Source: an uncultured Clostridia bacterium
Lineage (GTDB): Bacteria; Bacillota; Clostridia; UBA1381; UMGS1253
Assembly: GCA_934457145.1 (NCBI GenBank)
Contig: CAKSHP010000009.1
Span: 626-64,625, forward strand
Direction of reading: 5' to 3'
DNA: 64,000 bases
Of the stretch, positions 10,119-45,686 are shown in pieces (positions within the stretch are counted from its first letter, which is position 1; each line of letters opens with the position of its first letter). The notes under the pieces are model-generated. The model worked only from the letters and a program-made list of their open reading frames with translations, did not search any database and was not told where the DNA came from. The position numbers and the translations under genes are program-made.

Positions 10119-10741
10119 TTACCATTTTTGAATTGGTAAAAATGCAAATTCCACTTGGTAATTGTAGGAGATTTTCCTCTTTAGCGTTAAATTTTTCATA
10201 TTGTTAAAAAACATAAATGTTGAAACGCCGTAAAAACTTCTGTTTTTGTCATACATTCCGCTGTTGCCGTAGCCTATTCTTTCGCGGTATGATTCTTCCC
10301 ATGTGCCGCCGTTTATGCTGATGTTAAAATTTTTATTTTCGTCTTTTATCGGCATATGAGTTCCGTCTTTTGTTGTTTCGTTTCTCATTAAAAGAGCCCT
10401 GCATCCCTCGCTTTGGCAAATAACGGCTCCGTCCTGCGCTTCAATTCTTCTGTTTGAGCCTATAATAAGAGAGTTATCTATATAATACTTTTCATCTCTT
10501 TTCGGAATAAAAACAAATTCATGCTCGTCAATAGCTTGTCAATAGCTTTCTGAAAGGCTTTTGTCCATATTTTAATGCCGTTTTTTTCTTCTGCCAGCGA
10601 TTCATATTCAAAAACGGAAACTCTGTCCGTTAAAGCGTCTATAAGCTTAAAATTTCTGTTTTTCATTTCATCTAATGTTTTATATGTTTGTTTTTTGTTA
10701 ATTTTTTTGCACCTTCTGATTTTTTTCTTTGATTTTACCAT
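10119..10741 (-). pseudogene. Right-handed beta-helix glycoside hydrolase-like gene (Pectate_lyase_3/GH28-like N-terminus), frameshifted by an 11-bp tandem duplication and apparently 3'-truncated
   Basis: Track ORFs 10478-10741 and 10119-10388 join into one frame if the duplicated GTCAATAGCTT (10527-10537 and 10538-10548) is reduced to one copy. The joined reading is ...TKAFQKAIDEHEFVFIPKRDEKYYIDNSLIIGSNRRIEAQDGAVI...NISINGGTWE..., a beta-helix hydrolase pattern. Confidence 0.55.
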
Positions 10742-10778
10742 ATTTATATGACTATTTCAAGTCATTTTCATTTTTTTC

Positions 10779-10807
10779 TTGCAAATTGCATGGTTATATG
10801 TTAATAT
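10779..10807 (+). promoter_or_regulatory. Candidate promoter of the GH36 gene (an identical copy lies at 13503-13531)
   Basis: TTGCAA (10779-10784), 17-nt spacer, TAATAT (10802-10807). Confidence 0.5.
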
Positions 10808-10845
10808 ATGCTTGATTTTAATTTTTTTAAAGGAGATTTTAATAT

Positions 10846-13237: not shown

Positions 13238-13465
13238 CGGAATAAAAACAATTTCATGCTCGTCAATAGCTTTCTGAAAGGCTTTTGTCCATATTTTAAT
13301 GCCGTTTTTTTCTTCTGCCAGCGATTCATATTCAAAAACGGAAACTCTGTCCGTTAAAGCGTCTATAAGCTTAAAATTTCTGTTTTTCATTTCATCTAAT
13401 GTTTTATATGTTTGTTTTTTGTTAATTTTTTTGCACCTTCTGATTTTTTTCTTTGATTTTACCAT
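13232..13465 (-). pseudogene. Truncated 5' fragment of the beta-helix hydrolase-like gene (duplicate of 10513-10741)
   Basis: The first 68 aa are identical to ORF 10478-10741. The frame then ends at the duplication junction (…AIDEHEIVFIPL*). Confidence 0.7.
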
Positions 13466-15920
13466 ATTTATATGACTATTTCAAGTCATTTTCATTTTTT
13501 TCTTGCAAATTGCATGGTTATATGTTAATATATGCTTGATTTTAATTTTTTTAAAGGAGATTTTAATATATGGCAATAATATTTGACGAAAAATCCAAAA
13601 TTTTTAATCTTAAAACAAAAACTTCATCATACATTTTCAAAATATTGTGTGATAAGGTTTTAATGCATATCCACTACGGAAAAAGAATTGAAAACACAGA
13701 GAATATGGATTATCTTTACCGCGATTTTACGCATGCTTCGTTTGCGTCTGTTGATAAAGATTTAACCTTTAACGGCCACAATTTTTCAACCGACTCTTTA
13801 GAACAGGAATATTCGTTTTTCGGCAGCTGCGATTTGCGCACTCCCGCTTTTCACGCACAGTATAAAGACGGTTCAACAGTAACAAAAGCATATTATAAAT
13901 CGCATAAAATATATAACGGCAAGCCGAAATTATGTGGTCTGCCCGCAACCTATGCAGAAGATGACAGCGAAGTGCAGACTCTTGAAATAACTCTTTTCGA
14001 CGCTCTTACAAACATGAGCATAATTTTATACTACAGCGTTTTTGAAAAGTTTGACGCAATAACAAGAAGCGTTAAGGTTATAAACGGCGGAAAAGACAAC
14101 ATAAACTTAAAATCGGTTCTCAGCTTCAGCGTTGATTTTCCGAATGATGACTTCGATTTTACCCATCTTTACGGTTCATGGTACCGCGAAAGATATATAG
14201 AAAAACGCCCGGTTGCTCACGCAAATCTTTCAATCGACAGCAAAAGAGGTTCAAGCAGCCACTACCATAATCCGTTTTTTGCGCTTTCTTCTAAAAATGC
14301 AGATGAATTTGCCGGCGATGTGTATGGTTTTTCATTGGTATACAGCGGCAATTTCATAGGCGGTGTTGAATGTGACACAACAAACATTGCGCGCGTGTAT
14401 ATGGGAATTAATCCTTTTAATTTTAACTGGCTTTTAAAAGAAGGCGAAAGTTTTCAGACTCCCGAAGCGGTTATGGTTTATTCCGACTGCGGATTTTCAA
14501 AAATGTCTAATATTTATCACACCTTATACAGAAAGCGCCTTTGCCGCGGCGAGTACCGCGATAAAGTCCGCCCTGTTCTGGCAAACAATTGGGATGCAAC
14601 CGTTTTTGATTTTGACGAAGATAAGCTTTTACGCATTGCCGAAAACGCAAAGAAAATAGGCGTTGATTTATTTGTTTTAGACGACGGCTGGTTCGGAAAG
14701 AGAAACAATGATAACTGTTCTTTGGGCGACTGGGTAACAAACACCAAAAAGATCCCCAGCGGTATGGGCGGTCTTGCAAAAAAAATAAACGATTTGGGCA
14801 TGGAGTTTGGTTTGTGGTTTGAACCAGAAATGGTAAGCCCCGACAGCGATTTGTACCGCGCACACCCGGACTGGTGTATTCATGTTAAAAACCGCGACAG
14901 AAGCGAAGCAAGAAGTCAGCTTGTTTTGGATCTTTCAAGAAAAGACGTTTGCGATTATATTGTAAACACTCTTTCCGATGTGCTTTCAAATGCCAACATA
15001 ACATATGTAAAATGGGATATGAACAGAAATATAACCGAACCCGGCTCCGAGCTTTTGCCCCCCGAGCGTCAGATGGAGATATATCACAGATATATTTTGG
15101 GACTCTATAACGTGCTTGAACGCTTAACAACCAAGTTTCCTCATGTTTTGTGGGAGGGATGCAGCGGAGGCGGCGGCAGATTTGATCCCGCACTTTTATA
15201 CTATTTTCCGCAAAGCTGGGCAAGCGACAACACAGATGCGTGCGACAGAATATTTATTCAGTACGGCACAAGCCTTGTTATGCCTTGCTCATCAATGGGT
15301 TCTCACGTTACATCGGCTCCGAAATCAAACGGAAGAATAACTCCTCTTAAAACAAGAGGCAACGTTGCAATGACAGGACAGTTTGGATATGAGCTTGATT
15401 TGTCAAAATGCAGCGAAGAAGAAATAGAAGAGATGAAAGAGCAGATTGTGTTTTATAAAAAATACCGCCATGTTATTCAAAACGGCGATATGTATCGTTT
15501 GCGCAGTCCGTATACAATGAAAAACTGTGCGCTTGAGTTTATTTCGGAGGATAAAAACACCGTTATGGTATTTTACTTCACTCTCCACAGATTTGCAAAC
15601 GATTTTTCAACGCGTCTTACTCTTCACGGACTTGACAAAACGGCCGTTTATAAAGAAGTTAACTCAAATCTTCTCTACGGCGGAGATATGCTTTTAAATG
15701 CAGGAATAAAGGTTCATGACCAAAAAGATTTCGACAGTTTTGTATTTATTTTTGAAAAACAATAAAAACCGAAAGCGAAGTGATTTTTATGCAGACTGCG
15801 CTTAAAAAAAAGCCTGAGTTTAAAATTAAATCTGCGTCAAGAGATATATCTCTTGACGCAGTGAAGTTTTTTGCAATTATAGGCGTTTTATTTATACATT
15901 CATGCAATTATTTTTATCCG
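13238..15920 (+). repeat. Tandem segmental duplication, copy 2
   Basis: See copy 1. The right end of homology is 13196 in copy 1 and 15920 in copy 2. Confidence 0.9.
13570..15765 (+). CDS. Alpha-galactosidase, glycoside hydrolase family 36 (copy 2, protein identical to copy 1)
   Basis: The 731-aa translation is identical to 10846-13041. Confidence 0.9.
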   Translation: MAIIFDEKSKIFNLKTKTSSYIFKILCDKVLMHIHYGKRIENTENMDYLYRDFTHASFASVDKDLTFNGHNFSTDSLEQEYSFFGSCDLRTPAFHAQYKDGSTVTKAYYKSHKIYNGKPKLCGLPATYAEDDSEVQTLEITLFDALTNMSIILYYSVFEKFDAITRSVKVINGGKDNINLKSVLSFSVDFPNDDFDFTHLYGSWYRERYIEKRPVAHANLSIDSKRGSSSHYHNPFFALSSKNADEFAGDVYGFSLVYSGNFIGGVECDTTNIARVYMGINPFNFNWLLKEGESFQTPEAVMVYSDCGFSKMSNIYHTLYRKRLCRGEYRDKVRPVLANNWDATVFDFDEDKLLRIAENAKKIGVDLFVLDDGWFGKRNNDNCSLGDWVTNTKKIPSGMGGLAKKINDLGMEFGLWFEPEMVSPDSDLYRAHPDWCIHVKNRDRSEARSQLVLDLSRKDVCDYIVNTLSDVLSNANITYVKWDMNRNITEPGSELLPPERQMEIYHRYILGLYNVLERLTTKFPHVLWEGCSGGGGRFDPALLYYFPQSWASDNTDACDRIFIQYGTSLVMPCSSMGSHVTSAPKSNGRITPLKTRGNVAMTGQFGYELDLSKCSEEEIEEMKEQIVFYKKYRHVIQNGDMYRLRSPYTMKNCALEFISEDKNTVMVFYFTLHRFANDFSTRLTLHGLDKTAVYKEVNSNLLYGGDMLLNAGIKVHDQKDFDSFVFIFEKQ

Positions 15921-37187: not shown

Positions 37188-39179
37188 TTATATTATTTTC
37201 ATTATATCGCGCGTAAGGGCAAGCAAATCCGAGCAGTATTGCGATTTTTTGAATTTTGCGATTTGTCCGTTTTCACCGTAAAGCGTTATTGTTTCTTTTT
37301 CAAACTTTAAATAGTTTAGATAATATATAAATCCGCAAACATCTTCTTTTTCAAAGAAATCTTTGATACACGAATATAAAATAAATTCTTTTTCGGAATT
37401 AATATAAAGCTCCGGAAGTGTTTGTGCATTTTTTAATAAAAACATATTCGTAAACATGCAAACATCGGCAAAATCCTTAGGCTTTATCGGAGTTTCAAGC
37501 TTTTGCCACTGTTTTATGTCAAACCTGTAATAAAGCTCGGGGGAGTCTTTAAAAATTTCTTTTATATATCTTCTTTCAGTCAGCGTTTGTTTTGCAACCT
37601 CGCCGTAGTATAAAATGCCGCTTTCGGCTCCGAACAGTGATTTTGACTGATATATTGCAACATATTTAACCGGTAGATTTTCCTTAAAAACATATTTTTG
37701 CGGTATATAGTAAAAATTTTTTGATATATTTATTTCAAATTGCGCCCTTGTTTTCACAACGCCCGTCAAAACGTTTTTCCTTTCAAACATCATGTTGTTT
37801 TTTAACCTGCAAAAAACGTTCTGGTATTTTAAATCGTCGCTGTCGCCTGTTATTTCTTTTAAAAACTTATCAAAATCCGAATCGTAATCGGGCGAAAGCG
37901 CGATTGCGTTTTCAAATTCCGAATGTTTGTCATCAAAATAGAAAAGACTGCATTTTGAAATAATGCGGCGTTTGCTCGTTTTGCCTGTTAAAAGATTCGG
38001 ATATGCGCAAGTTTTAATAATATCCGTTTTATCGGGAGCTTTTTTATAAACGGCGTCAAATGCATAAATGTTTAAAAGCGATGCGCGTTCGTCATTTGTT
38101 TTAACGCTTATGAAAATGCACGGCAAATCAGGTTTCGGATCGTATTTAACCGAAATTGCAAGGTTTGCTTTGGTGTTTACAAATTTTGTTTCGCATGGCT
38201 TTGTTATATCCGCAAAAAACTTTGTTTCATCAAAAGTAAAAATATTTAAACAAACTTTCTGGCAGAGCTTTAAAAGCATATCGTTTATTTTTGCAAAACA
38301 CCAGAATTTATAAAGCATATCGGCATTATCTAACCCGCAAAAATAAAACAGAGATGTGTTTTGAGCTTTGATATCATCTATTAAAGAAAGCGGAGCTGAT
38401 AGAAGCGGTATGTTTTTTAGCATATCGCAAAGACCGGGGTAAAATACTTTTAATTCATTTAAAAGGTTTATGGTCTTTAAAATATTTTGCTTTAAATTTT
38501 TGTTTTTCTCTGTGTTGTATGCATCAATTATTTTATAGCCTTTAAAGGTTCTTTTGGGTGCGGCATTTCTTTTTGAAAACACAGCGGCAAATTTTCGTCT
38601 GCTTTTCGGTTTTAAAAATTTTAACGACTTGTCAGAAACCTTAAAGCTTCGCGGTTTAACGGACGAAATAAGCGTATTTAAGTGATCATATATATAAAAC
38701 GGCGTTTTGTGGTTTTTCACATTATAAAAGCTTAAACCGTCTAATGCGCCGCAATCGTCAAGAAACTTGCGGATTTGCGAGTCTGCATATTTTCCGATAA
38801 AGGAAAGCATGGCGTGCAAATCTTCTTTATATGAATCCATGCCTGCAAACGCTTCAAGTTCGGCATAACCGTAAAGAGAGGAATTTATATATAATTCAAG
38901 CCTGTTAATTCCTGAAAGAAAATTTATCCCGGCGCAGTATATGCCGGAAAAAATTTTTGTAAGAGCCAGCGGATTTCCGTTTAACAAAAGCTCGGTTCTA
39001 TCTTCCGGGCTTTTGTTAAGATAAAGAAAATACTTTCCGCTTTGGTATAGCGCATAATTTTTTTCGCATTTAAAATTTTCGCTCAGGCTGATATTTCCCG
39101 CGCTTTCAGGTCGGTTTTCGTTTTCGCAAAATATGCATATGCTGACCGTGCCGGAAGTTATGTTTAAAACTTCTGTCAA
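37188..39179 (-). CDS. Orphan large protein with DUF2357/McrC-like N-terminus, degenerate PD-(D/E)xK (DUF524-like) core and a PUA-like C-terminal module. This assignment is a hypothesis.
   Basis: Start is placed at TTG 39179 (AAGGAGG at 39194-39188, 8-nt spacer) because the track start at 39236 lies inside the metQ terminator stem. Motifs: MLYKFWCFAKI, PDLPCIFISV...(18 aa)...FDAVYKK, and VKYVAIYQS...GILYYGEV...YYRFDIKQWQKLETPI. Confidence 0.7.
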   Translation of the reverse strand: MTEVLNITSGTVSICIFCENENRPESAGNISLSENFKCEKNYALYQSGKYFLYLNKSPEDRTELLLNGNPLALTKIFSGIYCAGINFLSGINRLELYINSSLYGYAELEAFAGMDSYKEDLHAMLSFIGKYADSQIRKFLDDCGALDGLSFYNVKNHKTPFYIYDHLNTLISSVKPRSFKVSDKSLKFLKPKSRRKFAAVFSKRNAAPKRTFKGYKIIDAYNTEKNKNLKQNILKTINLLNELKVFYPGLCDMLKNIPLLSAPLSLIDDIKAQNTSLFYFCGLDNADMLYKFWCFAKINDMLLKLCQKVCLNIFTFDETKFFADITKPCETKFVNTKANLAISVKYDPKPDLPCIFISVKTNDERASLLNIYAFDAVYKKAPDKTDIIKTCAYPNLLTGKTSKRRIISKCSLFYFDDKHSEFENAIALSPDYDSDFDKFLKEITGDSDDLKYQNVFCRLKNNMMFERKNVLTGVVKTRAQFEINISKNFYYIPQKYVFKENLPVKYVAIYQSKSLFGAESGILYYGEVAKQTLTERRYIKEIFKDSPELYYRFDIKQWQKLETPIKPKDFADVCMFTNMFLLKNAQTLPELYINSEKEFILYSCIKDFFEKEDVCGFIYYLNYLKFEKETITLYGENGQIAKFKKSQYCSDLLALTRDIMKII

Positions 39180-39195
39180 AAAAGCCGCCTCCTTA

Positions 39196-39243
39196 CTAAA
39201 AATATAATAAAGGGCGCGCAGCAAAATATGCCGCACACCCTTT
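39196..39243 (-). terminator. Rho-independent terminator of metNIQ
   Basis: On the minus strand, AAAGGGUGUGCGGC (39243-39230) pairs over 14 bp, including 3 G-U pairs, with GCUGCGCGCCCUUU (39222-39209). AUUAUAUUUUU follows. Confidence 0.75.
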
Positions 39244-39254
39244 TAAGGATTTAA

Positions 39255-40073
39255 TTAAAATATTGCAACAACAGCGCCTTCATATTTGTCTTCTATGAAT
39301 TTGCGGATTTCTTCTGTTTGCAAAGCTTTTAATAAAGCTTTGGTTTTTTCGCTGTTTTCGTTGCCTTCTTTAACCGCAACTATGTTTGCATAGCGTTTTG
39401 CGGCTTCGGAGTTTGCGTCTTCTGTTGCAAGAGCCTGCGAAACCTTAAGTCCGCCGCCTATAGCATAGTTACCGTTGATAACTGCCATGTCAACGTCTGC
39501 CAAAGCGCGAACAAGCTGCGCTGCTTCAATTTCTTCAATAACAAGGTTTTTCGGATTTTCCGCAATATCAAGAACGGTTGCCGTGAATCCAATGCCCTCG
39601 CGGAGCTTTATAAGATCTAAAGACTCTAAAAGGAAGAGCGCTCTTGCTTCGTTTGTTCCGTCGTTGGGGATAGCAATTTTAGCTCCGTCTGCCAAAGCGT
39701 CTAAAGAGTTTGTTTTTCCGGCATACAAACCGAACGGCTCATAGTGAATTGCGCCTGCGGAAACAAGATGTGTGTTGTTGTTTTTGTTAAAGTCTTCAAG
39801 ATAGGGCAAGTGCTGGAAGTAGTTTGCATCAAGCTCGCCGCTTTCGGTTGCCGTGTTGGGAAGAACATAATCGTTATACTCAACAACTTCGAGAGTGTAG
39901 CCTTCTTTTGCAAGTGCGTCTTTTGCAGCTGCCAAAATTTCAGCATGCGGAGTTACGCTTGCGCCGACTTTGATAACCTTTTCTTTTGAAGCGCTGTTTT
40001 TGCCGCAGCCTGTAAATGAGAAAATCATAACTATTCCCAATACAACTGCCAATACCTTTGATAATTTTTTCAT
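39255..40073 (-). CDS. metQ: Methionine ABC transporter substrate-binding lipoprotein (NlpA/MetQ family)
   Basis: Lipobox FSFTGC. The NlpA-family pattern reads IKVGASVTPHAEIL...LDANYFQHLPYL... Confidence 0.9.
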   Translation of the reverse strand: MKKLSKVLAVVLGIVMIFSFTGCGKNSASKEKVIKVGASVTPHAEILAAAKDALAKEGYTLEVVEYNDYVLPNTATESGELDANYFQHLPYLEDFNKNNNTHLVSAGAIHYEPFGLYAGKTNSLDALADGAKIAIPNDGTNEARALFLLESLDLIKLREGIGFTATVLDIAENPKNLVIEEIEAAQLVRALADVDMAVINGNYAIGGGLKVSQALATEDANSEAAKRYANIVAVKEGNENSEKTKALLKALQTEEIRKFIEDKYEGAVVAIF

Positions 40074-40090
40074 TTTAAAACATCTCCTTT

Positions 40091-40750
40091 TTATTTTATT
40101 CGTTTGTCGGACAGTTTGGCAAGCGCCATGCCCAACTCCTGAAATATTTGAACAATGACTACCAGCAAAAGCACCGTAATCATCATTACATCATTTTGAT
40201 AACGGTAATAACCGTAGTTAATGCCTATTGCGCCCAAACCGCCGCCGCCTACAAAGCCTGCCATTGCAGAGTAACCCAAAATGGTTGTAATGGCAATTGC
40301 AGCGCCCGTTATAAGAGAGGGCGTTGCCTCGGGAATAAGCACTTTATAAATAATCTGAAATGCATTAGAGCCCATCGACTCCGCAGCTTCTATAACGCCT
40401 AAGTCAACCTCTTTTAAAGATGATTCAACCATTCTTGCAACAAACGGTGCCGACGCTATAACAAGCGGAACAATTGTTGCCGTTGAGCCTATGGTTGTGC
40501 CGATAAGCCAGCGCGTGAACGGAAGTATCGCAACGAGCAAGATGATAAACGGAACCGAGCGCAAAAGATTTATTATAACGCCCAAAACAGTGTTTATTAT
40601 TTTGTTTCTGCAAATTCCGTCTTTGTCCGTTATATATAATATAATGCCCAAAGGAAGACCGAAAACATATGCCAAAGCTGTTGAAACGATAACCATATAC
40701 AGCGTTTCCAAAACGCCGTTTATAAGCAAATCAATTATTGATTGTGTCAT
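40091..40750 (-). CDS. metI: Methionine ABC transporter permease
   Basis: 219 aa, 5 TM. The EAA-like loop reads VDLGVIEAAESMGSNAFQIIYKVLIPEA. Confidence 0.9.
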   Translation of the reverse strand: MTQSIIDLLINGVLETLYMVIVSTALAYVFGLPLGIILYITDKDGICRNKIINTVLGVIINLLRSVPFIILLVAILPFTRWLIGTTIGSTATIVPLVIASAPFVARMVESSLKEVDLGVIEAAESMGSNAFQIIYKVLIPEATPSLITGAAIAITTILGYSAMAGFVGGGGLGAIGINYGYYRYQNDVMMITVLLLVVIVQIFQELGMALAKLSDKRIK

Positions 40751-41744
40751 CTTTTCTTTCCTCCTCTTTGTAGATTAAATTTTTGTTTTTTAAATATTCG
40801 AGCACCCTTTTTGAATCCTCCTCGCTTTCGGGCAGCTGCAAAACCATTTGTCCGTAAGCTATGCCGTCTATAGTTTGAGTGTTTGCCGCCAAAATATTTA
40901 CCGCCGCGTGACATTCAAACGCAAGGTTTGAAATTGTCGGCTCAAAGGCGGAGGCGCCGTCGAAAACAATTCTTATGCACTTTTTGCCCGCCATGCGCTC
41001 TATTGCCTCGGTTTTCGGCAAGATAAGCTCTTTTGCAATCTGCGATTTCGGACGCATAAAAATTTCTTTAACGCTTCCCTGTTCAACAATGTGGCTTTTG
41101 TCTATAACGGCAACCTTGTTGCATATCTGCTCAATAACTTTCATTTCATGAGTTATAACAACAATTGTAACGTTCATTTTTTTGTTGATATCTTTTAAAA
41201 GCTGCAAAATCGAGCGTGTCGTGTTAGGATCAAGCGCGCTTGTTGCCTCGTCGCAAAGCAAAACCTTCGGATTTGTTGCAAGCGCCCTTGCAATGGCAAC
41301 TCTTTGTTTTTGTCCGCCGGAAAGCTGAGCCGGATACGAATTTGCTTTATCCGAAAGTCCGACAAGCTCTAAAAGCTCTTTTGCTCTTTTTTTTGCTTCG
41401 TGCGACGGTACTTTTGCAATTTCAAGCGGATAACATATGTTTTTTAAAACGGTTCTCTGCGCTAAAAGGTTAAAGCCCTGAAAAATCATTGACATAGACT
41501 GTCTTGTTTTTAAAAGCTCTTTTTTTGAAAGCTTTGAAAGGTCTTTGCCGTCAAAAACAACCGTTCCGCCGGTCGGAATTTCAAGATAGTTTATACAGCG
41601 TACAAGCGTGCTCTTGCCGGCGCCCGACAAACCGATTATCCCGAAAATATCGCCCTTTTCGATGTCTAAATTGATATCTTTGATTGCTTCAACGCTGTTT
41701 TCGCCGCTTCCGTAAACCTTTGTGAGGTTTTGTAGTTTAATCAA
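40731..41744 (-). CDS. metN: Methionine ABC transporter ATP-binding protein with C-terminal NIL domain
   Basis: Walker A GLSGAGKST, signature LSGGQKQR, Walker B LLCDEATSALD. TTG start with a GGGGAG RBS. A 20-bp overlap with metI supports operon structure. Confidence 0.9.
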   Translation of the reverse strand: MIKLQNLTKVYGSGENSVEAIKDINLDIEKGDIFGIIGLSGAGKSTLVRCINYLEIPTGGTVVFDGKDLSKLSKKELLKTRQSMSMIFQGFNLLAQRTVLKNICYPLEIAKVPSHEAKKRAKELLELVGLSDKANSYPAQLSGGQKQRVAIARALATNPKVLLCDEATSALDPNTTRSILQLLKDINKKMNVTIVVITHEMKVIEQICNKVAVIDKSHIVEQGSVKEIFMRPKSQIAKELILPKTEAIERMAGKKCIRIVFDGASAFEPTISNLAFECHAAVNILAANTQTIDGIAYGQMVLQLPESEEDSKRVLEYLKNKNLIYKEEERKDDTINN

Positions 41745-41779
41745 AGTTTGTTCACTCCCCCAAATATAGTTGCCGTATA

Positions 41780-41810
41780 ATAAAAACGGCAGGATATCTG
41801 CGCTCCTGCC
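41780..41810 (-). terminator. Leader terminator (attenuator) between the leader ORF and metN
   Basis: On the minus strand: GGCAGGA (41810-41804), loop GCGCAGAUA, UCCUGCC (41794-41788), then GUUUUUAUUAU. It lies 44 nt upstream of the metN TTG. Confidence 0.7.
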
Positions 41811-41849
41811 AAAATAATATTCATCAAAATTATTAAAAAGATGAAATAA

Positions 41850-41936
41850 TTATATGATAGAACGCGCTGCAAAAAGATATGTATCCATGCACATATCCAT
41901 AAAACACATACCACATGTCATACAAAGCTTTTTCAT
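41850..41936 (-). CDS. 28-codon Met/Cys-rich leader ORF (MKKLCMTCGMCFMDMCMDTYLFAARSII)
   Basis: Not in the ORF track because it is under 60 aa. ATG is at 41936. AAGGAGG lies 8 nt upstream. Ten of 28 codons are AUG or UGY. Stop is TAA at 41852-41850. Confidence 0.55.
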   Translation of the reverse strand: MKKLCMTCGMCFMDMCMDTYLFAARSII

Positions 41937-41984
41937 ATTCAGCGCCTCCTTTTTTAAATACTACTAATTCACTATGTTTAGTTT

Positions 41985-42013
41985 ATTATAGCACCGGGAC
42001 GCCTGTATGTCAA
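41985..42013 (-). promoter_or_regulatory. Consensus sigma-A promoter of the met leader/metNIQ operon
   Basis: On the minus strand: TTGACA (42013-42008), 17-nt spacer, TATAAT (41990-41985). Both hexamers match the consensus perfectly. Confidence 0.7.
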
Positions 42014-42094
42014 CAAAAAATTAGCTTCTAATTCTGTTTTTTGCAGATAACTTAAAAAGTTATCTGCAAATATGTTTTAAATGCATAAAATTTA

Positions 42095-43855
42095 TTATTT
42101 AAGTCTGTCTGCCATAGTGTAAAATTTAGCATATATTCCGTTTTCGCGCATCAAAAAATCATGAGTGCCGCTTTCGGCAATGCCGTCGCAGGTTAAAACC
42201 AAAATTCTGTCGGAATTTTTTATGCTTGAAAGACGGTGCGCAATGGTGATGGTTGTGCGCCCCTGTGCAAGAGCGTTTAAAGATTTTGCAACTTCAAACT
42301 CGCTTTCGTTGTCAAGAGCGCTCGTTGCTTCGTCTAAAATGATAATCGGCGGATTTTTTAAAAATATGCGCGCGATGCTTATGCGTTGTTTCTGTCCGCC
42401 GGAGAGCTTTACGCCTCTTTCGCCGACATAGGTGTTATATCCGTCTTTTAGCTTTGATATAAACTCATCTGCGCCGGCGCGGCGTGCCGCTTCTTTCACT
42501 TCTTCAAAAGAAGAACCCGGTTTTCCGTAAGAAATATTTTCAAAAACCGTTCCGGAAAATAAATAAACGTCCTGCTGAACCATGCCGATGTTTCGGCGAA
42601 GGCTTTTTAGCGTAAATTCTTTAATATCGTGACCGTCGATAAAAATGGTTCCTCCGGTGGTGTCGTAAAAACGGGGAATAAGGTTGCAAAGGGTTGTTTT
42701 TCCGCCACCCGACGGACCGACTATTGCCACTTTTTCGCCGGGGCTGACGCTAAGATTTAAGTTTTTAAACACCGTATTGTGATCGTCGGGATATTCAAAG
42801 GAAACATTTTTAAAAACGATATTTCCCTTTGGCGATACCATCTCTTTTGCGTCCGGCGAATCAAAAATTTCAATATCGGAGTCTATTATTTGCAAAAACC
42901 TTTCTATTCCCGTCATACCGCGCTGAAATTGCTCGGTAAACTCTATTATTTTGCGGATTGTGGTAATCAGCGTTGAAACATACATAACATATGCAACCAT
43001 ATCACCCGGCAAAATACTGCCGTTTACCAGAAATATTCCGCCGCCGATAATTACGGCTAAATACATAAGTCCGTCAAACACGCGCGTTGAGGTTTGAAAA
43101 AGCCCCATTATTTTATAGGTGTGCTGTTTGATGTCGAAAAAATTTTGGTTTCCTTTTTCAAACTTATTAATTTCCAAGTCCTCGTTTGCAAAAGCTCTAA
43201 CAACCTTTTGCCCGAGAAGAGTATCTTCAATATCCGCGTTAAGCTCGCCTATCTGATAGCGCTGTTTTGCAAAGGCGCTGCGCATTTTTTTATTTATTTT
43301 TTTGCATACAATAAACATAACCGGAACAAATATAAATATCATCAGCGTTAAAAGAAAGTTTATGTTTGCAAGTATTATAAACGAAAAAACTATCTTAACC
43401 CCGGCGATAAAAATTTCCTCCGGGCAATGGTGGGCAAACTCTGTTATGTCAAATAAATCGTTTGTTATGCGCCCCATTATCTGCCCTACTTTTGTGTTGT
43501 TAAAATATGAATCGGACAGCTTCTGAAGATGCGCATAAGCATCGCGGCGCATATCCGTTTCGATTTTTGTGCCCATGATATGACCCGTGCTTGCCATGTA
43601 GTAGTTTGCGAAGCTGTCGATAATTCTTAAAACAAAATATAAAAAACCGAGCGACAAAACGGTTTGCATGGTTAAAAGAGCCGTGTCTTTTAAGGCGGTG
43701 TTTGTTATGTAGCGAATTATCATCGGCAGCACTATTTCACACACCGTTGTCAGCGACGCGCAAAATAAATCTGCAATCAATGTTTTTACATACGGTTTAA
43801 AATACGGAGAAAACCGCATTATCAGTTCTTTGTTTGAATAGCTTTTGTTTTCCAT
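42095..43855 (-). CDS. ABC transporter, fused permease/ATPase (MsbA/multidrug-exporter type)
   Basis: 586 aa. Six N-terminal TM segments, Walker A GPSGGGKTT, signature LSGGQKQR, Walker B IIILDEATSALD. Confidence 0.85.
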   Translation of the reverse strand: MENKSYSNKELIMRFSPYFKPYVKTLIADLFCASLTTVCEIVLPMIIRYITNTALKDTALLTMQTVLSLGFLYFVLRIIDSFANYYMASTGHIMGTKIETDMRRDAYAHLQKLSDSYFNNTKVGQIMGRITNDLFDITEFAHHCPEEIFIAGVKIVFSFIILANINFLLTLMIFIFVPVMFIVCKKINKKMRSAFAKQRYQIGELNADIEDTLLGQKVVRAFANEDLEINKFEKGNQNFFDIKQHTYKIMGLFQTSTRVFDGLMYLAVIIGGGIFLVNGSILPGDMVAYVMYVSTLITTIRKIIEFTEQFQRGMTGIERFLQIIDSDIEIFDSPDAKEMVSPKGNIVFKNVSFEYPDDHNTVFKNLNLSVSPGEKVAIVGPSGGGKTTLCNLIPRFYDTTGGTIFIDGHDIKEFTLKSLRRNIGMVQQDVYLFSGTVFENISYGKPGSSFEEVKEAARRAGADEFISKLKDGYNTYVGERGVKLSGGQKQRISIARIFLKNPPIIILDEATSALDNESEFEVAKSLNALAQGRTTITIAHRLSSIKNSDRILVLTCDGIAESGTHDFLMRENGIYAKFYTMADRLK

Positions 43856-44120
43856 TTTTTATCCTCTTTAAATAATAATCAAAAACATTTTATCACAATC
43901 AAAAGCGTTTTTCAACAAAAATTATTGCAAAGCGGCAAAATGAACGAAAAAAAACGTCTTACGGGAAAATTTTAATTATTATTTATTAAATAGGAAGAAA
44001 AAGAAAAAAATAAAAAAAATAAAAAATTTTTTTATTTTAATGCAACTTTTCGGGCTTTTAAAATGTATTATAAGTGAAAAGGGTAAAACACCTAAAAAAA
44101 TTCATAAAAGGAAAAGAGGA

Positions 44121-45686
44121 ATGAAAATGAAAAAAATTATTTCAATTGCTTTAACGGCAGCAATGGTATTTTCATCAATGGTATTTACTGCTTTTGCAGA
44201 AGATGAAGAAAACGGCGTTGTACCGATTTCGGCGCCTGTGGATTCTTCAAAACCTGTACCGATTTCAGCTCCGGTGGATTCTTCGGAAGCACCCGTGCAG
44301 AATATAGAAAAGGTTACATATAACGGCACTGTTGAAGAAGCCGGCGAAGGTTATATCACATTAAAGGAAGAAAAAATTCAGCTTAACTATGATGAAAGCA
44401 CTCTTGTTTGCGACTACGACTTTATGCCTTATGAGAGCATAAAGGCAGGCGACAGCGTAACGGTTGTTGCAGACACAGTTACAACAATGAGCATACCGGC
44501 TCAGTCTTATGCATACTACATTTTGGTTAACACCAAAAATTCTTCGGCAGCGCCGATATATGCAAAGGTTTTGTCAAATGACGGCAAAGAGATAATGTCT
44601 GCGGATAATCAGAACAAAATTATTATCTCAGACGAAACTCCCACATCTCACTACAGAGCAAAAATAAAAATAATGGCAAAAGATATTCCCGCGGGTTCTG
44701 AAATATTTGCATTTGCGACAACCGTAGGTCTTAGCATGCCGGCATATGTGCCCGCAGAGAAAATTGTTGTAATAAACATGGGAGAAGAAGCAAAAGAGCC
44801 TTCAGAAGGCGCAGAAAATATAACAATTTCAAAACCTGCTGATACCGACAGCGTTACATATAACGGCACTGTTGAAGAAGCCGGCGAAGGTTATATCACA
44901 TTAAAGGAAGAAAAAATTCAGCTTAACTATGATGAAAGCACTCTTGTTTGCGACTACGACTTTATGCCTTATGAGAGCATAAAGGCAGGCGACAGCGTAA
45001 CGGTTGTTGCAGACACGGTTACAACAATGAGCATACCGGCTCAGTCTTATGCATACTACATTTTGGTTAATACCAAAAATTCTTCGGCAGCGCCGATATA
45101 TGCAAAGGTTTTGTCAAATGACGGCAAAGAGATAATGTCTGCAGATAATCAGAACAAAATTATTATCTCAGACGATACCCCCACAGCTCATTACAGAGCA
45201 AAAATAAAAATAATGGCAAAAGATATTCCCGCGGGTTCTGAAATATTTGCTTTTGCAGAAACTGTAGGTCTTAGTATTCCGGCATATGTTGCACCCGAGA
45301 AAATCACGGTTGTAAACCTTGCCCAGGATACGGCTGCGGCAGATGTTGAAAAAATTATTGTTGACGATAAAACATATGAGGTATCGTTTAACTTTGAAAA
45401 AAAAGAAGAATTCGGCGAAAACCCAACTGCAAGATTTGCGTTAAGGCCGGTTTGCGAAGCTTTGGGCTATGATGTTTCCTGGGTTGGCGAAACGCAGAGC
45501 ATCGTTCTTTCAAAAGGCGGAAAAGACGTAAGCTTGGATATTGGCGTTGCAGTGCAGAAAATCGGCCACACACCGATGATTATTGACGGCAAAACATATG
45601 TTACACTTTCTTTGTTTAAAGTTTTATACGGAGATGAGGCAGAAGTTTCACTTAAAGACAACGCAGTAGTTGTTACAACAAAGTAA
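44121..45686 (+). CDS. Secreted protein with an internally duplicated 180-aa unit and a C-terminal Cu-amine-oxidase-N-like domain
   Basis: ATG 44121 is preferred (AAGAGGA RBS; signal peptide MKMKKIISIALTAAMVFSSMVFTAFA). The C-terminus RFALRPVCEALGYDVSWVGETQSIVL...IIDGKTYVTLSLF is stalk-like. Confidence 0.8.
   Translation: MKMKKIISIALTAAMVFSSMVFTAFAEDEENGVVPISAPVDSSKPVPISAPVDSSEAPVQNIEKVTYNGTVEEAGEGYITLKEEKIQLNYDESTLVCDYDFMPYESIKAGDSVTVVADTVTTMSIPAQSYAYYILVNTKNSSAAPIYAKVLSNDGKEIMSADNQNKIIISDETPTSHYRAKIKIMAKDIPAGSEIFAFATTVGLSMPAYVPAEKIVVINMGEEAKEPSEGAENITISKPADTDSVTYNGTVEEAGEGYITLKEEKIQLNYDESTLVCDYDFMPYESIKAGDSVTVVADTVTTMSIPAQSYAYYILVNTKNSSAAPIYAKVLSNDGKEIMSADNQNKIIISDDTPTAHYRAKIKIMAKDIPAGSEIFAFAETVGLSIPAYVAPEKITVVNLAQDTAAADVEKIIVDDKTYEVSFNFEKKEEFGENPTARFALRPVCEALGYDVSWVGETQSIVLSKGGKDVSLDIGVAVQKIGHTPMIIDGKTYVTLSLFKVLYGDEAEVSLKDNAVVVTTK
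44313..44780 (+). repeat. Intragenic tandem repeat, unit 1
   Basis: The offset to unit 2 is exactly 540 bp. Only 3 substitutions were seen by eye in the first roughly 330 bp, and divergence rises toward the 3' end. Confidence 0.9.
44853..45320 (+). repeat. Intragenic tandem repeat, unit 2
   Basis: See unit 1. Both encode VTYNGTVEEAGEGYITLKEEKIQLNYDESTLVCDYDFMPYESIKAGDSVTVVADTVTTMSIPAQSYAYYILVNTKNSSAAPIYAKVLSNDGKEIMSADNQNKIIISD... Confidence 0.9.

Follow-up and report, generated by a model that had tools for sequence, protein, structure and literature searches.

Short Met/Cys-codon reading frames upstream of metNIQ operons in uncultured Clostridia as likely ribosome-mediated transcription attenuators

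Methionine genes in the Firmicutes are thought to be controlled by S-box riboswitches and T-boxes, and this raises the question of how a methionine importer is regulated where its leader contains neither. The question is posed by the metNIQ operon of an uncultured Clostridia bacterium, encoded on the minus strand of a 64,000-nucleotide stretch of contig CAKSHP010000009.1 (assembly GCA_934457145.1, positions 626 to 64,625; hereafter the window, to which all coordinates refer). An initial annotation had seen no S-adenosylmethionine (SAM)-I core and no T-box in the 270 bp that precede the metN TTG start codon, and had proposed instead a translated, Met/Cys-rich leader open reading frame (ORF) coupled to a terminator/antiterminator switch. 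Searches against Rfam 15 bear out the first of these statements: no SAM, T-box or other family was detected in the window at the gathering thresholds, nor in the leader (41650-42150) at E<=10, and the lack of a covariance-model match rules out a SAM riboswitch or T-box identity for this leader. The second is supported by the recurrence of the same design in related genomes, by the strong bias of its AUG triplets toward one reading frame and by the presence of T-boxes and SAM-I riboswitches in the same slot elsewhere. We consider it likely that the metNIQ leader is a ribosome-mediated leader-peptide transcription attenuator that senses the charging of elongator tRNA-Met, and probably that of tRNA-Cys as well.

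The individual parts described in the initial annotation are all in place (Table 1): a perfect TTGACA-N17-TATAAT promoter, an AAGGAGG Shine-Dalgarno (SD) sequence eight nucleotides before the ATG at 41936, a 28-codon ORF with six Met and four Cys codons, a small AU-rich hairpin (UUCAUC/GAUGAA) after its stop codon and a canonical intrinsic terminator ahead of the metN TTG. The promoter is the top-scoring one among 16 promoter-like sites in the segment scanned (39000-44200), and transcription from it would start at about 41978; equivalent TTGACA/TATAAT promoters precede the leader ORFs of relatives. The Met codons occupy positions 1, 6, 10, 13, 15 and 17 of the ORF and the Cys codons positions 5, 8, 11 and 16, so that codons 5-17 form a dense sensor cluster. 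A pattern scan with a loop limit of 8 nt missed the terminator, which has a 9-nt loop; folding confirmed it with a stem free energy (dG) of -11.4 kcal/mol. Codons 23-26, hereafter region 2, fall inside the footprint of a ribosome standing at the leader stop codon.

The leader ORF is not a product of chance. Its best 13-codon stretch holds nine Met plus Cys codons, against a maximum of five among the 947 other short ORFs of the window. When 798 kb of fetched DNA was scanned in all six frames, stop-free 13-codon stretches with at least five ATG codons were confined to metN leaders apart from a single antisense case, whereas stretches with four ATG proved to be ordinary background. Since no other Met-cluster ORF with at least five ATG was found in the window or in about 150 locus flanks, save that one antisense case, there is no sign in the scanned DNA of a wider regulon. 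The window leader is homologous to those of three other loci (L003, L083 and L084), with which it shares a ATGGATATGTGCATGGAT block and a GCAGG…CCTGC terminator. Gene finders had left the ORF uncalled at all six contig places listed with an identical MetN (13 contigs read). The leaders of these same-species contigs differ at five positions, too few for statistics, all of them outside the ORF and terminator stem; one of these single-nucleotide polymorphisms sits in the loop of the small AU-rich hairpin. A chance or decayed ORF devoid of regulatory role, with the operon expressed constitutively past a leaky hairpin, could draw on the fact that the window leader lies at the family's low end for Met, with five internal AUG per 13 codons, and that its antiterminator is individually non-significant (see below). 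Set against the codon density, the clear homology to the L003 and L083 leaders, the perfect promoter and SD, and the invariance of ORF and terminator stem while the flanks vary, this explanation is scarcely credible.

To place this leader in a comparative frame, we used a MetN search that gathered 80 species-representative genome loci, 63 metagenome loci and six same-species contigs (L001-L149), from which 129 non-redundant metN upstream regions were taken for ATG counts. The maximal number of in-frame ATG per stop-free 13 codons is bimodal across this sample, with 4-10 in 30 regions and three or fewer in the remaining 99. The expectation that short, AUG-enriched ORFs followed by a terminator would be found upstream of related metN genes is therefore borne out in 30 of 129 cases, all of them loci of other uncultured Clostridia with short ORFs of divergent sequence. 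An SD-like sequence precedes the ORF in every one of the 30 leaders, and each has a GC-rich hairpin with a U-tract between the ORF stop and metN (dG -11 to -29 kcal/mol). The encoded peptides are 23-45 residues long and so varied that, in a MAFFT alignment with a mean column identity of 28%, complete or near-complete conservation is confined to the Met columns. Met makes up 22.8% and Cys 9.7% of their residues, Trp is absent and no leader lacks Cys altogether; at the Met-rich extreme, the L102 leader packs 10 Met into its densest 13 codons and has 12 internal Met in the ORF. The internal ATG triplets are distributed as 211 in the ORF frame versus seven and eight in the other two.

A leader-peptide profile search of 5.8 billion proteins retrieved 19 short proteins, all unnamed or labelled 'hypothetical', of which eleven were new; the peptide of the L003 leader is found on 111 contigs. 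The four newly retrieved leaders whose contexts were examined have the same anatomy, SD-like sequence included, and each stands immediately ahead of an operon for a methionine ABC transporter; some of these operons are arranged as metQ-metN-metI. The occurrence of leaders before metQ-first operons indicates that the leader tracks the operon rather than a particular first gene. Altogether, the design recurs with divergent peptides in at least 35 distinct leaders. As an observation in its own right, the leader ORFs of L010, L018, L019 and L020 share a subfamily block, MMMC[KT]GM[ER]MP, whose RNA forms a perfect hairpin, GGGCAUG-(G/A)(A/G)A-AUGCCC, containing two Met codons; this could be a pause hairpin or a 1:2-type hairpin within the sensor cluster.

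The frame bias also bears on whether the leader might be a protein- or ligand-binding RNA, either TRAP-like or an unrecognised SAM/Met riboswitch, in which the AUGs serve as binding triplets and the ORF is incidental. An array of AUGs, often within AUGUGCAUG, upstream of a terminator superficially resembles a TRAP site, and the preference for UGC over UGU even in AT-rich leaders hints at an RNA-level constraint. Against this, AUG triplets number 211 in one frame versus 15 outside it, their spacings are multiples of three, including zero (adjacent AUGAUGAUG), and each array follows an SD with a start codon and contains no stop before region 2. Moreover, apart from the Met codons and the terminator there are neither conserved nucleotides nor aptamer-like covarying helices, and no Rfam family is matched. 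We accordingly regard a binding-site origin of the arrays as very unlikely.

What occupies the position upstream of metN at loci lacking such an ORF? Among the first 20 loci (L001-L020) neither a T-box nor a SAM-I covariance model is matched. At more distant orthologous loci, T-box leaders (RF00230; L029, L032, L034-L037 and L050; 97-106 bits) and SAM-I riboswitches (RF00162; L066-L075 and L077; 82-89 bits) are present in this very slot, which suggests that the leader ORF stands in for these Met- or SAM-sensing RNAs. A second type of leader ORF lies directly upstream of metN in Feifaniaceae metagenome-assembled genomes (L007, 2806-2917 of that locus; L009; L014) and in Ruminococcaceae of the UMGS1279-like kind (L012, L087-L090 and L100). 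Its first 18 codons are kept at the amino-acid level through synonymous changes, with the motif M-[NS]-[IY]-[YI]-F-x-x-LLR-[ET]-NFRCGRM, and the peptide diverges beyond them. Immediately after comes the antiterminator strand, which in L007 is AACUCCCGAG and pairs with the terminator 5' arm, CUCGGGAGUU. This type has no Rfam match and, by analogy with the logic of TnaC and SpeFL, looks like a sensor of the arrest-peptide kind. Thus, close MetN relatives (55-71% identity) are preceded by at least four kinds of sensor, namely the Met-codon ORF, the conserved-peptide ORF, the T-box and SAM-I, which points to repeated sensor replacement on a single terminator-based output. Several metN upstream regions have no recognisable sensor (e.g., L016, L022-L027, L085 and L113/L114).

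This interchangeability also argues against a functional small Met/Cys-rich peptide, for instance one that binds metals, acts in redox chemistry or serves as a transporter accessory, that is merely co-transcribed with the operon past an ordinary partial terminator. Gene callers do occasionally predict the leader ORFs as hypothetical proteins, and Met/Cys-rich peptides are in general able to bind metals. However, the peptides vary in both sequence and length with only the Met positions conserved, a strong terminator whose 5' arm is complementary to the 3' end of the ORF always stands between ORF and operon, and orthologues fill the same slot with T-box or SAM-I elements. A peptide with a function of its own is accordingly very improbable, even slightly more so than a binding-site array.

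How, then, might translation of the ORF be coupled to the terminator? The initial annotation had proposed that codons 24-26 (GCGCGUUCU, 41867-41859) act as an antiterminator by pairing with AGGAGCGC (41807-41800), the antiterminator 3' strand, which comprises part of the terminator 5' arm and loop (GCGC·GUUCU with AGGA·GCGC). This pairing is indeed that of minimum free energy (MFE) when a ribosome is placed at the last Met of the cluster and all RNA on its 5' side is left out of the fold; the helix encloses the small AU-rich hairpin, and relatives show analogous inner hairpins. Support for it comes from the family as a whole. Folding of 26 distinct leaders, with dinucleotide-shuffled versions of region 2 as controls, showed the terminator 5' arm paired with upstream sequence at a mean probability of 0.73 with a stalled ribosome, 0.27 with a ribosome at the stop codon and 0.59 with the shuffles (Wilcoxon test, stalled vs shuffles p = 5e-5, stalled vs stop p = 1e-5). 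In a swap test, the native sum of region 2:arm energies was -319.7 kcal/mol versus -254.1±12.3 for permuted partners, and none of 20,000 permutations reached the native value. As this could have been inflated by matching of GC content, the comparison was repeated with GC-matched random segments of the same locus, over which the family's region 2:arm pairing remained the stronger (p = 0.002). Freeing region 2 cuts the net advantage of the terminator across the family from -15.2 to -6.7 kcal/mol (p = 6e-7).

What the initial annotation had missed is that region 2, taken as codons 23-26, has a second and stronger partner in the SD region of its own leader. AGGA-G-GCGCUG (41950-41940) pairs with CAGCGC-G-UUCU (41869-41859) through 10 bp worth about -17 kcal/mol, and this is the unconstrained MFE pairing. 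The duplex is stronger than that expected from random segments of the same locus (-17.4 vs -10.9±3.2 kcal/mol, p about 0.035), and across the family the SD:region 2 pairing is significant both against GC-matched controls (p = 1e-5) and in the swap test (0 of 20,000 permutations). As read from the sequence, the terminator arm and loop, AGGAGCGC, mimics the SD-region motif AGGAGGCGC; the former occurs twice and the latter once in the window, counting both strands. Region 2 can thus be seen as a pivot strand with two alternative partners.

These results bear unevenly on the attenuator reading, and several points weigh against it. In the window itself, the region 2:arm pairing (-11.3 kcal/mol) is no better than GC-matched random segments (-11.1±3.2 kcal/mol, p 0.49), so that the proposed antiterminator is supported at the level of the family but is at chance energy here. 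In 4-6 of the 26 leaders, a ribosome at the stop codon leaves the predicted antiterminator unmasked. The cross-duplex matrix among the window, L003 and L083 leaders, which place the helix in the same register, is not diagonal-dominant, and hence we claim no compensatory covariation. Methionine starvation also lowers the charging of initiator tRNA and could thereby blunt a sensor built of Met codons. Most important, with the SD free and one ribosome footprint on the RNA, the equilibrium probability of the terminator in the window is 0.99 in every ribosome state, because region 2 then pairs with the free SD. This rules out the simple thermodynamic form of the stall model. The effect of masking envisaged by the initial annotation does appear once the 5' part of the leader is masked, whereupon the probability of the terminator is 0.09 with a stalled ribosome versus 0.99 with one at the stop codon. 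The model therefore needs either occupancy of the SD or kinetic trapping. As in the E. coli trp leader, the antiterminator is in most cases less stable than the terminator and can prevail only if it forms earlier.

The same results might be taken to favour a translated Met/Cys sensor with another output, such as SD:region 2 remodelling, mRNA stability or Rho, the hairpin being constitutive. SD:region 2 is the stronger and statistically better supported pairing in both window and family, the terminator never opens at equilibrium while the SD is free, and clear terminators are missing from the Streptomyces metL ORF as well as from the Cys leaders of Actinobacteria (PMC8079986; PMC1262725). On the other side stand the canonical GC-rich hairpin and U-tract in all 30 leaders, the family-wide region 2:arm complementarity that exceeds both GC-matched and swapped controls, and the drop in terminator probability when the 5' part of the window leader is masked. 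We judge such a non-classical output to be unlikely.

The data establish the elements, the conservation of their arrangement, the reading-frame bias of the AUGs, the link to the operon and, in silico, the alternative pairings. Under the attenuation mechanism, we infer leader translation, stalling, a kinetic order of folding, SD occupancy during the stall and a contribution of Cys. Four elements would take part in it: element 1 is the SD region, element 2 is region 2, element 3 is the terminator 5' arm with its loop and element 4 is the 3' arm. After initiation of transcription, a ribosome would load at the strong SD. With Met and Cys in ample supply, it would run to the UAA and cover region 2, so that 3:4 forms, transcription stops at 41786-41777 and metNIQ is off; upon its release after full translation, region 2 would pair with the SD region and close the leader. 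With Met or Cys scarce, ribosomes would stall in codons 5-17, and the SD and 5' part would be held by stalled, queued or initiating ribosomes. The 39-nt sensor cluster has room for a lead and a trailing ribosome, which would help to keep the SD occupied. The bare region 2 would then pair with AGGAGCGC as soon as it is transcribed, the terminator would be blocked and the polymerase would enter metN. In an untranslated leader, 1:2 and 3:4 would form, giving a default-off state like that set by 1:2 in the trp attenuator. The SD:region 2 pairing would thus act both as an anti-antiterminator and in sequestration of the SD.

The part played by cysteine calls for separate consideration. Typical proteomes have a Cys frequency of about 1.2%, and the leaders exceed this approximately eight-fold (9.7%). 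A Cys-weighted leader is found at L040, L057 and L061, where a promoter and AAGGAGG precede the ORF MKKNNCRHAMCMCTGKSKDRRYGRCCCARM, with three internal Met and six Cys, followed by a terminator (UGGAAGCC…GGCUUCCA-U5). Its position is about 320 to 227 nt ahead of the metN start as assigned, and a second promoter-like AT-rich stretch occurs in the roughly 190 nt between leader and start. A further objection to the attenuator reading arises here: the Cys codons of the leaders are 62 UGC against 12 UGU (84% UGC), AT-rich leaders included, and part of the 'Cys' signal may be an RNA-level preference for AUGUGCAUG rather than Cys sensing. This bias weakens the argument from synonymous Cys codons for selection at the amino-acid level, except in the window, where three of the four Cys codons are UGU. 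Judged from the codon content, Cys is probably sensed alongside Met.

More tentatively, we raise as a possibility that these leaders represent a widespread and so far uncharacterised class of dual Met/Cys attenuators in uncultured Clostridia of gut and rumen. In such a class, the SD and an SD-mimicking terminator arm would compete for a pyrimidine-rich pivot strand, and the decision would be taken through ribosome occupancy of the AUG/UGY cluster and the SD. The class would range from Met- to Cys-weighted variants and would coexist in sister lineages, at the same operon, with the arrest-peptide-like sensor xIYFxxLLRxNFRCGRM.

The coordinates of the leader elements and of the operon that they precede are collected in Table 1. 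Upstream of the leader, on the same strand, lies an ABC-exporter ORF (42095-43855; ABC_membrane and ABC_tran domains), the gene ending at 42095; the perfect hairpin just beyond its 3' end is likely its terminator, which marks the metN leader as a separate transcription unit with its own promoter. Three further features were noted in the window. Directly downstream of the metNIQ terminator is a 682-aa ORF with a GTG start (37188-39236, minus strand). A 548-aa ORF on the plus strand (44040-45686) resembles a signal peptide at its N-terminus, and inside it a segment of 540 nt (180 aa) is tandemly duplicated at 98% identity (repeats 44302-44601 and 44842-45141). Finally, 10534-10833 and 13258-13557 are 100% identical direct repeats that belong to a repeat with a spacing of 2724 nt and a length of at least about 1.1 kb, within which identical short ORFs recur (11210/13934 and 11489/14213); this probably arose by tandem duplication or by the doubling of a gene segment.

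Table 1. Features of the metNIQ leader, the operon and the adjoining hairpin, by position in the window
Feature	Coordinates	Strand	Details	Basis
Sigma-70-type promoter	41985..42013	-	TTGACA 42013-42008, 17-nt spacer, TGcTATAAT (extended -10), -10 hexamer 41990-41985	12/12 match
Leader SD region (region 1)	41940..41951	-	AAGGAGG 41951-41945 plus GCGCUG; able to pair with region 2	duplex folding
Leader ORF	41850..41936	-	MKKLCMTCGMCFMDMCMDTYLFAARSII, 28 codons plus TAA (41852-41850)	translation, codon density, homology to L003/L083/L084 leaders
Sensor cluster	41886..41924	-	codons 5-17: five AUG and four Cys codons (3 UGU, 1 UGC); proposed stall zone	
Region 2 (pivot strand)	41859..41869	-	CAGCGCGUUCU, codons 23-26; pairs with SD region or with terminator 5' arm and loop	
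Small AU-rich hairpin	41820..41845	-	UUCAUC 41845-41840, 14-nt loop, GAUGAA 41825-41820	folding
Leader intrinsic terminator	41777..41810	-	GGCAGGA 41810-41804, 9-nt loop GCGCAGAUA, UCCUGCC 41794-41788, then GUUUUUAUUAU 41787-41777	
metN SD	41755..41761	-	GGGGGAG	
metN	40731..41744	-	ABC ATPase with C-terminal NIL domain; TTG start at 41744	PF00005 and PF09383
metI	40091..40750	-	permease (BPD_transp_1)	
metQ	39255..40073	-	lipoprotein substrate-binding protein (Lipoprotein_9/NlpA family)	
Operon-end intrinsic terminator	39209..39243	-		15 pairs, 8 GC
Perfect 14-bp hairpin	42040..42070		loop 3, just 3' of the upstream ABC-exporter gene	

If the attenuation model is correct, AUG codons are usable as starvation sensors although Met-tRNA is also needed for initiation, and nature provides a case of four interchangeable sensors, namely a SAM aptamer, a T-box, a codon-cluster ORF and a conserved leader peptide, acting on one operon through one terminator output. 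There are also practical consequences. Gene callers miss such ORFs or label them 'hypothetical protein', and reconstructions of regulons from riboswitches and T-boxes would wrongly score such metNIQ operons as unregulated. Being short and modular, the leaders are potential Met/Cys-responsive switches for anaerobes.

The classical reference for this design is the set of enterobacterial attenuators (E. coli and Salmonella trp, his, leu, thr, pheA, ilvGMEDA and ilvBN). Common to them and the metNIQ leaders are a short SD-led ORF with a cluster of cognate codons, an intrinsic terminator that separates this ORF from the first structural gene, and a peptide conserved at the regulatory codons alone. 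In both, the strands can pair alternatively as 1:2, 2:3 or 3:4, and the terminator is more stable than the antiterminator, which makes the switch kinetic. The SD-led ORF, the codon cluster, the terminator and the codon-only conservation are all seen in the window and its relatives, and the antiterminator is seen at the family level, with the window pairing at chance energy and the terminator prevailing at equilibrium while the SD is free. Unlike the enterobacterial systems, the metNIQ leader would sense AUG (and UGY) codons and control an importer rather than biosynthesis, its region 1 is its own SD instead of the regulatory codons, and its host is a Firmicute of the class Clostridia, where control by T-boxes and riboswitches dominates. 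We know of no Met-specific leader-peptide attenuator in the textbook set, and none of this type was found among the Rfam 15 matches.

In the literature searchable in full text, with subscription-only papers falling outside, the single precedent for a Met leader peptide is 'metL' of Streptomyces lividans TK24, a leaderless Met/Cys ORF (…CMCRRMCAF) upstream of metNIQ that its authors took for a leader peptide dependent on methionine (Droste et al. 2021, PMC8079986). It was reported as an annotation of one genome, with no experiments, and is described there as lacking a typical Rho-independent terminator (PMC8079986). Both metL and the metNIQ leader show an alternation of Cys and Met and the same position before metNIQ, a likeness between sequences that are short and biased; metL has no SD and two internal Met codons, whereas our leader has about 40 nt before the ORF, an SD and a canonical terminator. 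The initial annotation's suggestion that such an attenuator is possibly undescribed thus nearly holds, with the metL annotation as its predecessor. Elsewhere in the Actinobacteria, an earlier survey found Cys leaders and none for methionine, and suggested Rho (Seliverstov 2005, PMC1262725). The nearest experimentally studied analogue for a sulfur amino acid is provided by the mycobacterial polycysteine upstream ORFs (Canestrari et al., bioRxiv 10.1101/834739). These actinobacterial leaders share with ours runs of sulfur-amino-acid codons in short upstream ORFs and ribosome stalling, by which the supply of the amino acid is relayed to the sulfur-metabolism genes that follow, and differ in using Cys only, in being mostly leaderless, in having no conserved intrinsic terminator and in preceding cysteine biosynthesis genes.

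Within the Firmicutes, classical attenuation by leader peptides is rare yet present and can replace T-boxes; the attenuators of this kind sense His, Leu or Leu/Phe, and none senses Met/Cys. The Leu/Phe leader of Lactococcus corresponds to RF01743. The rarity of leader peptides in this phylum and the His leader of hisS/hisZ in Bacilli have been described (Naville and Gautheret 2010, PMC2965389), as has a Leu-rich attenuator peptide of ilv in S. aureus (PMC5794164). The B. subtilis TRAP protein binds 11 (G/U)AG repeats with spacers of 2-3 nt upstream of an antiterminator/terminator (PMC3064811); its site consists of non-ORF repeats that need a dedicated protein, in contrast to the in-frame triplets inside an SD-led ORF seen here. 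The S-box and Met T-box leaders share with the metNIQ leader the slot before metN, the terminator/antiterminator output and an importer that is on at low Met or SAM; they sense by a SAM aptamer or by uncharged tRNA, whereas the metNIQ leader would do so by a ribosome on AUG/UGY codons. What is new here is the Met specificity, the occurrence in Clostridia, the control of an importer and the three-way switch based on SD mimicry, and the underlying principle is that of the textbook attenuators, partly anticipated in Streptomyces.

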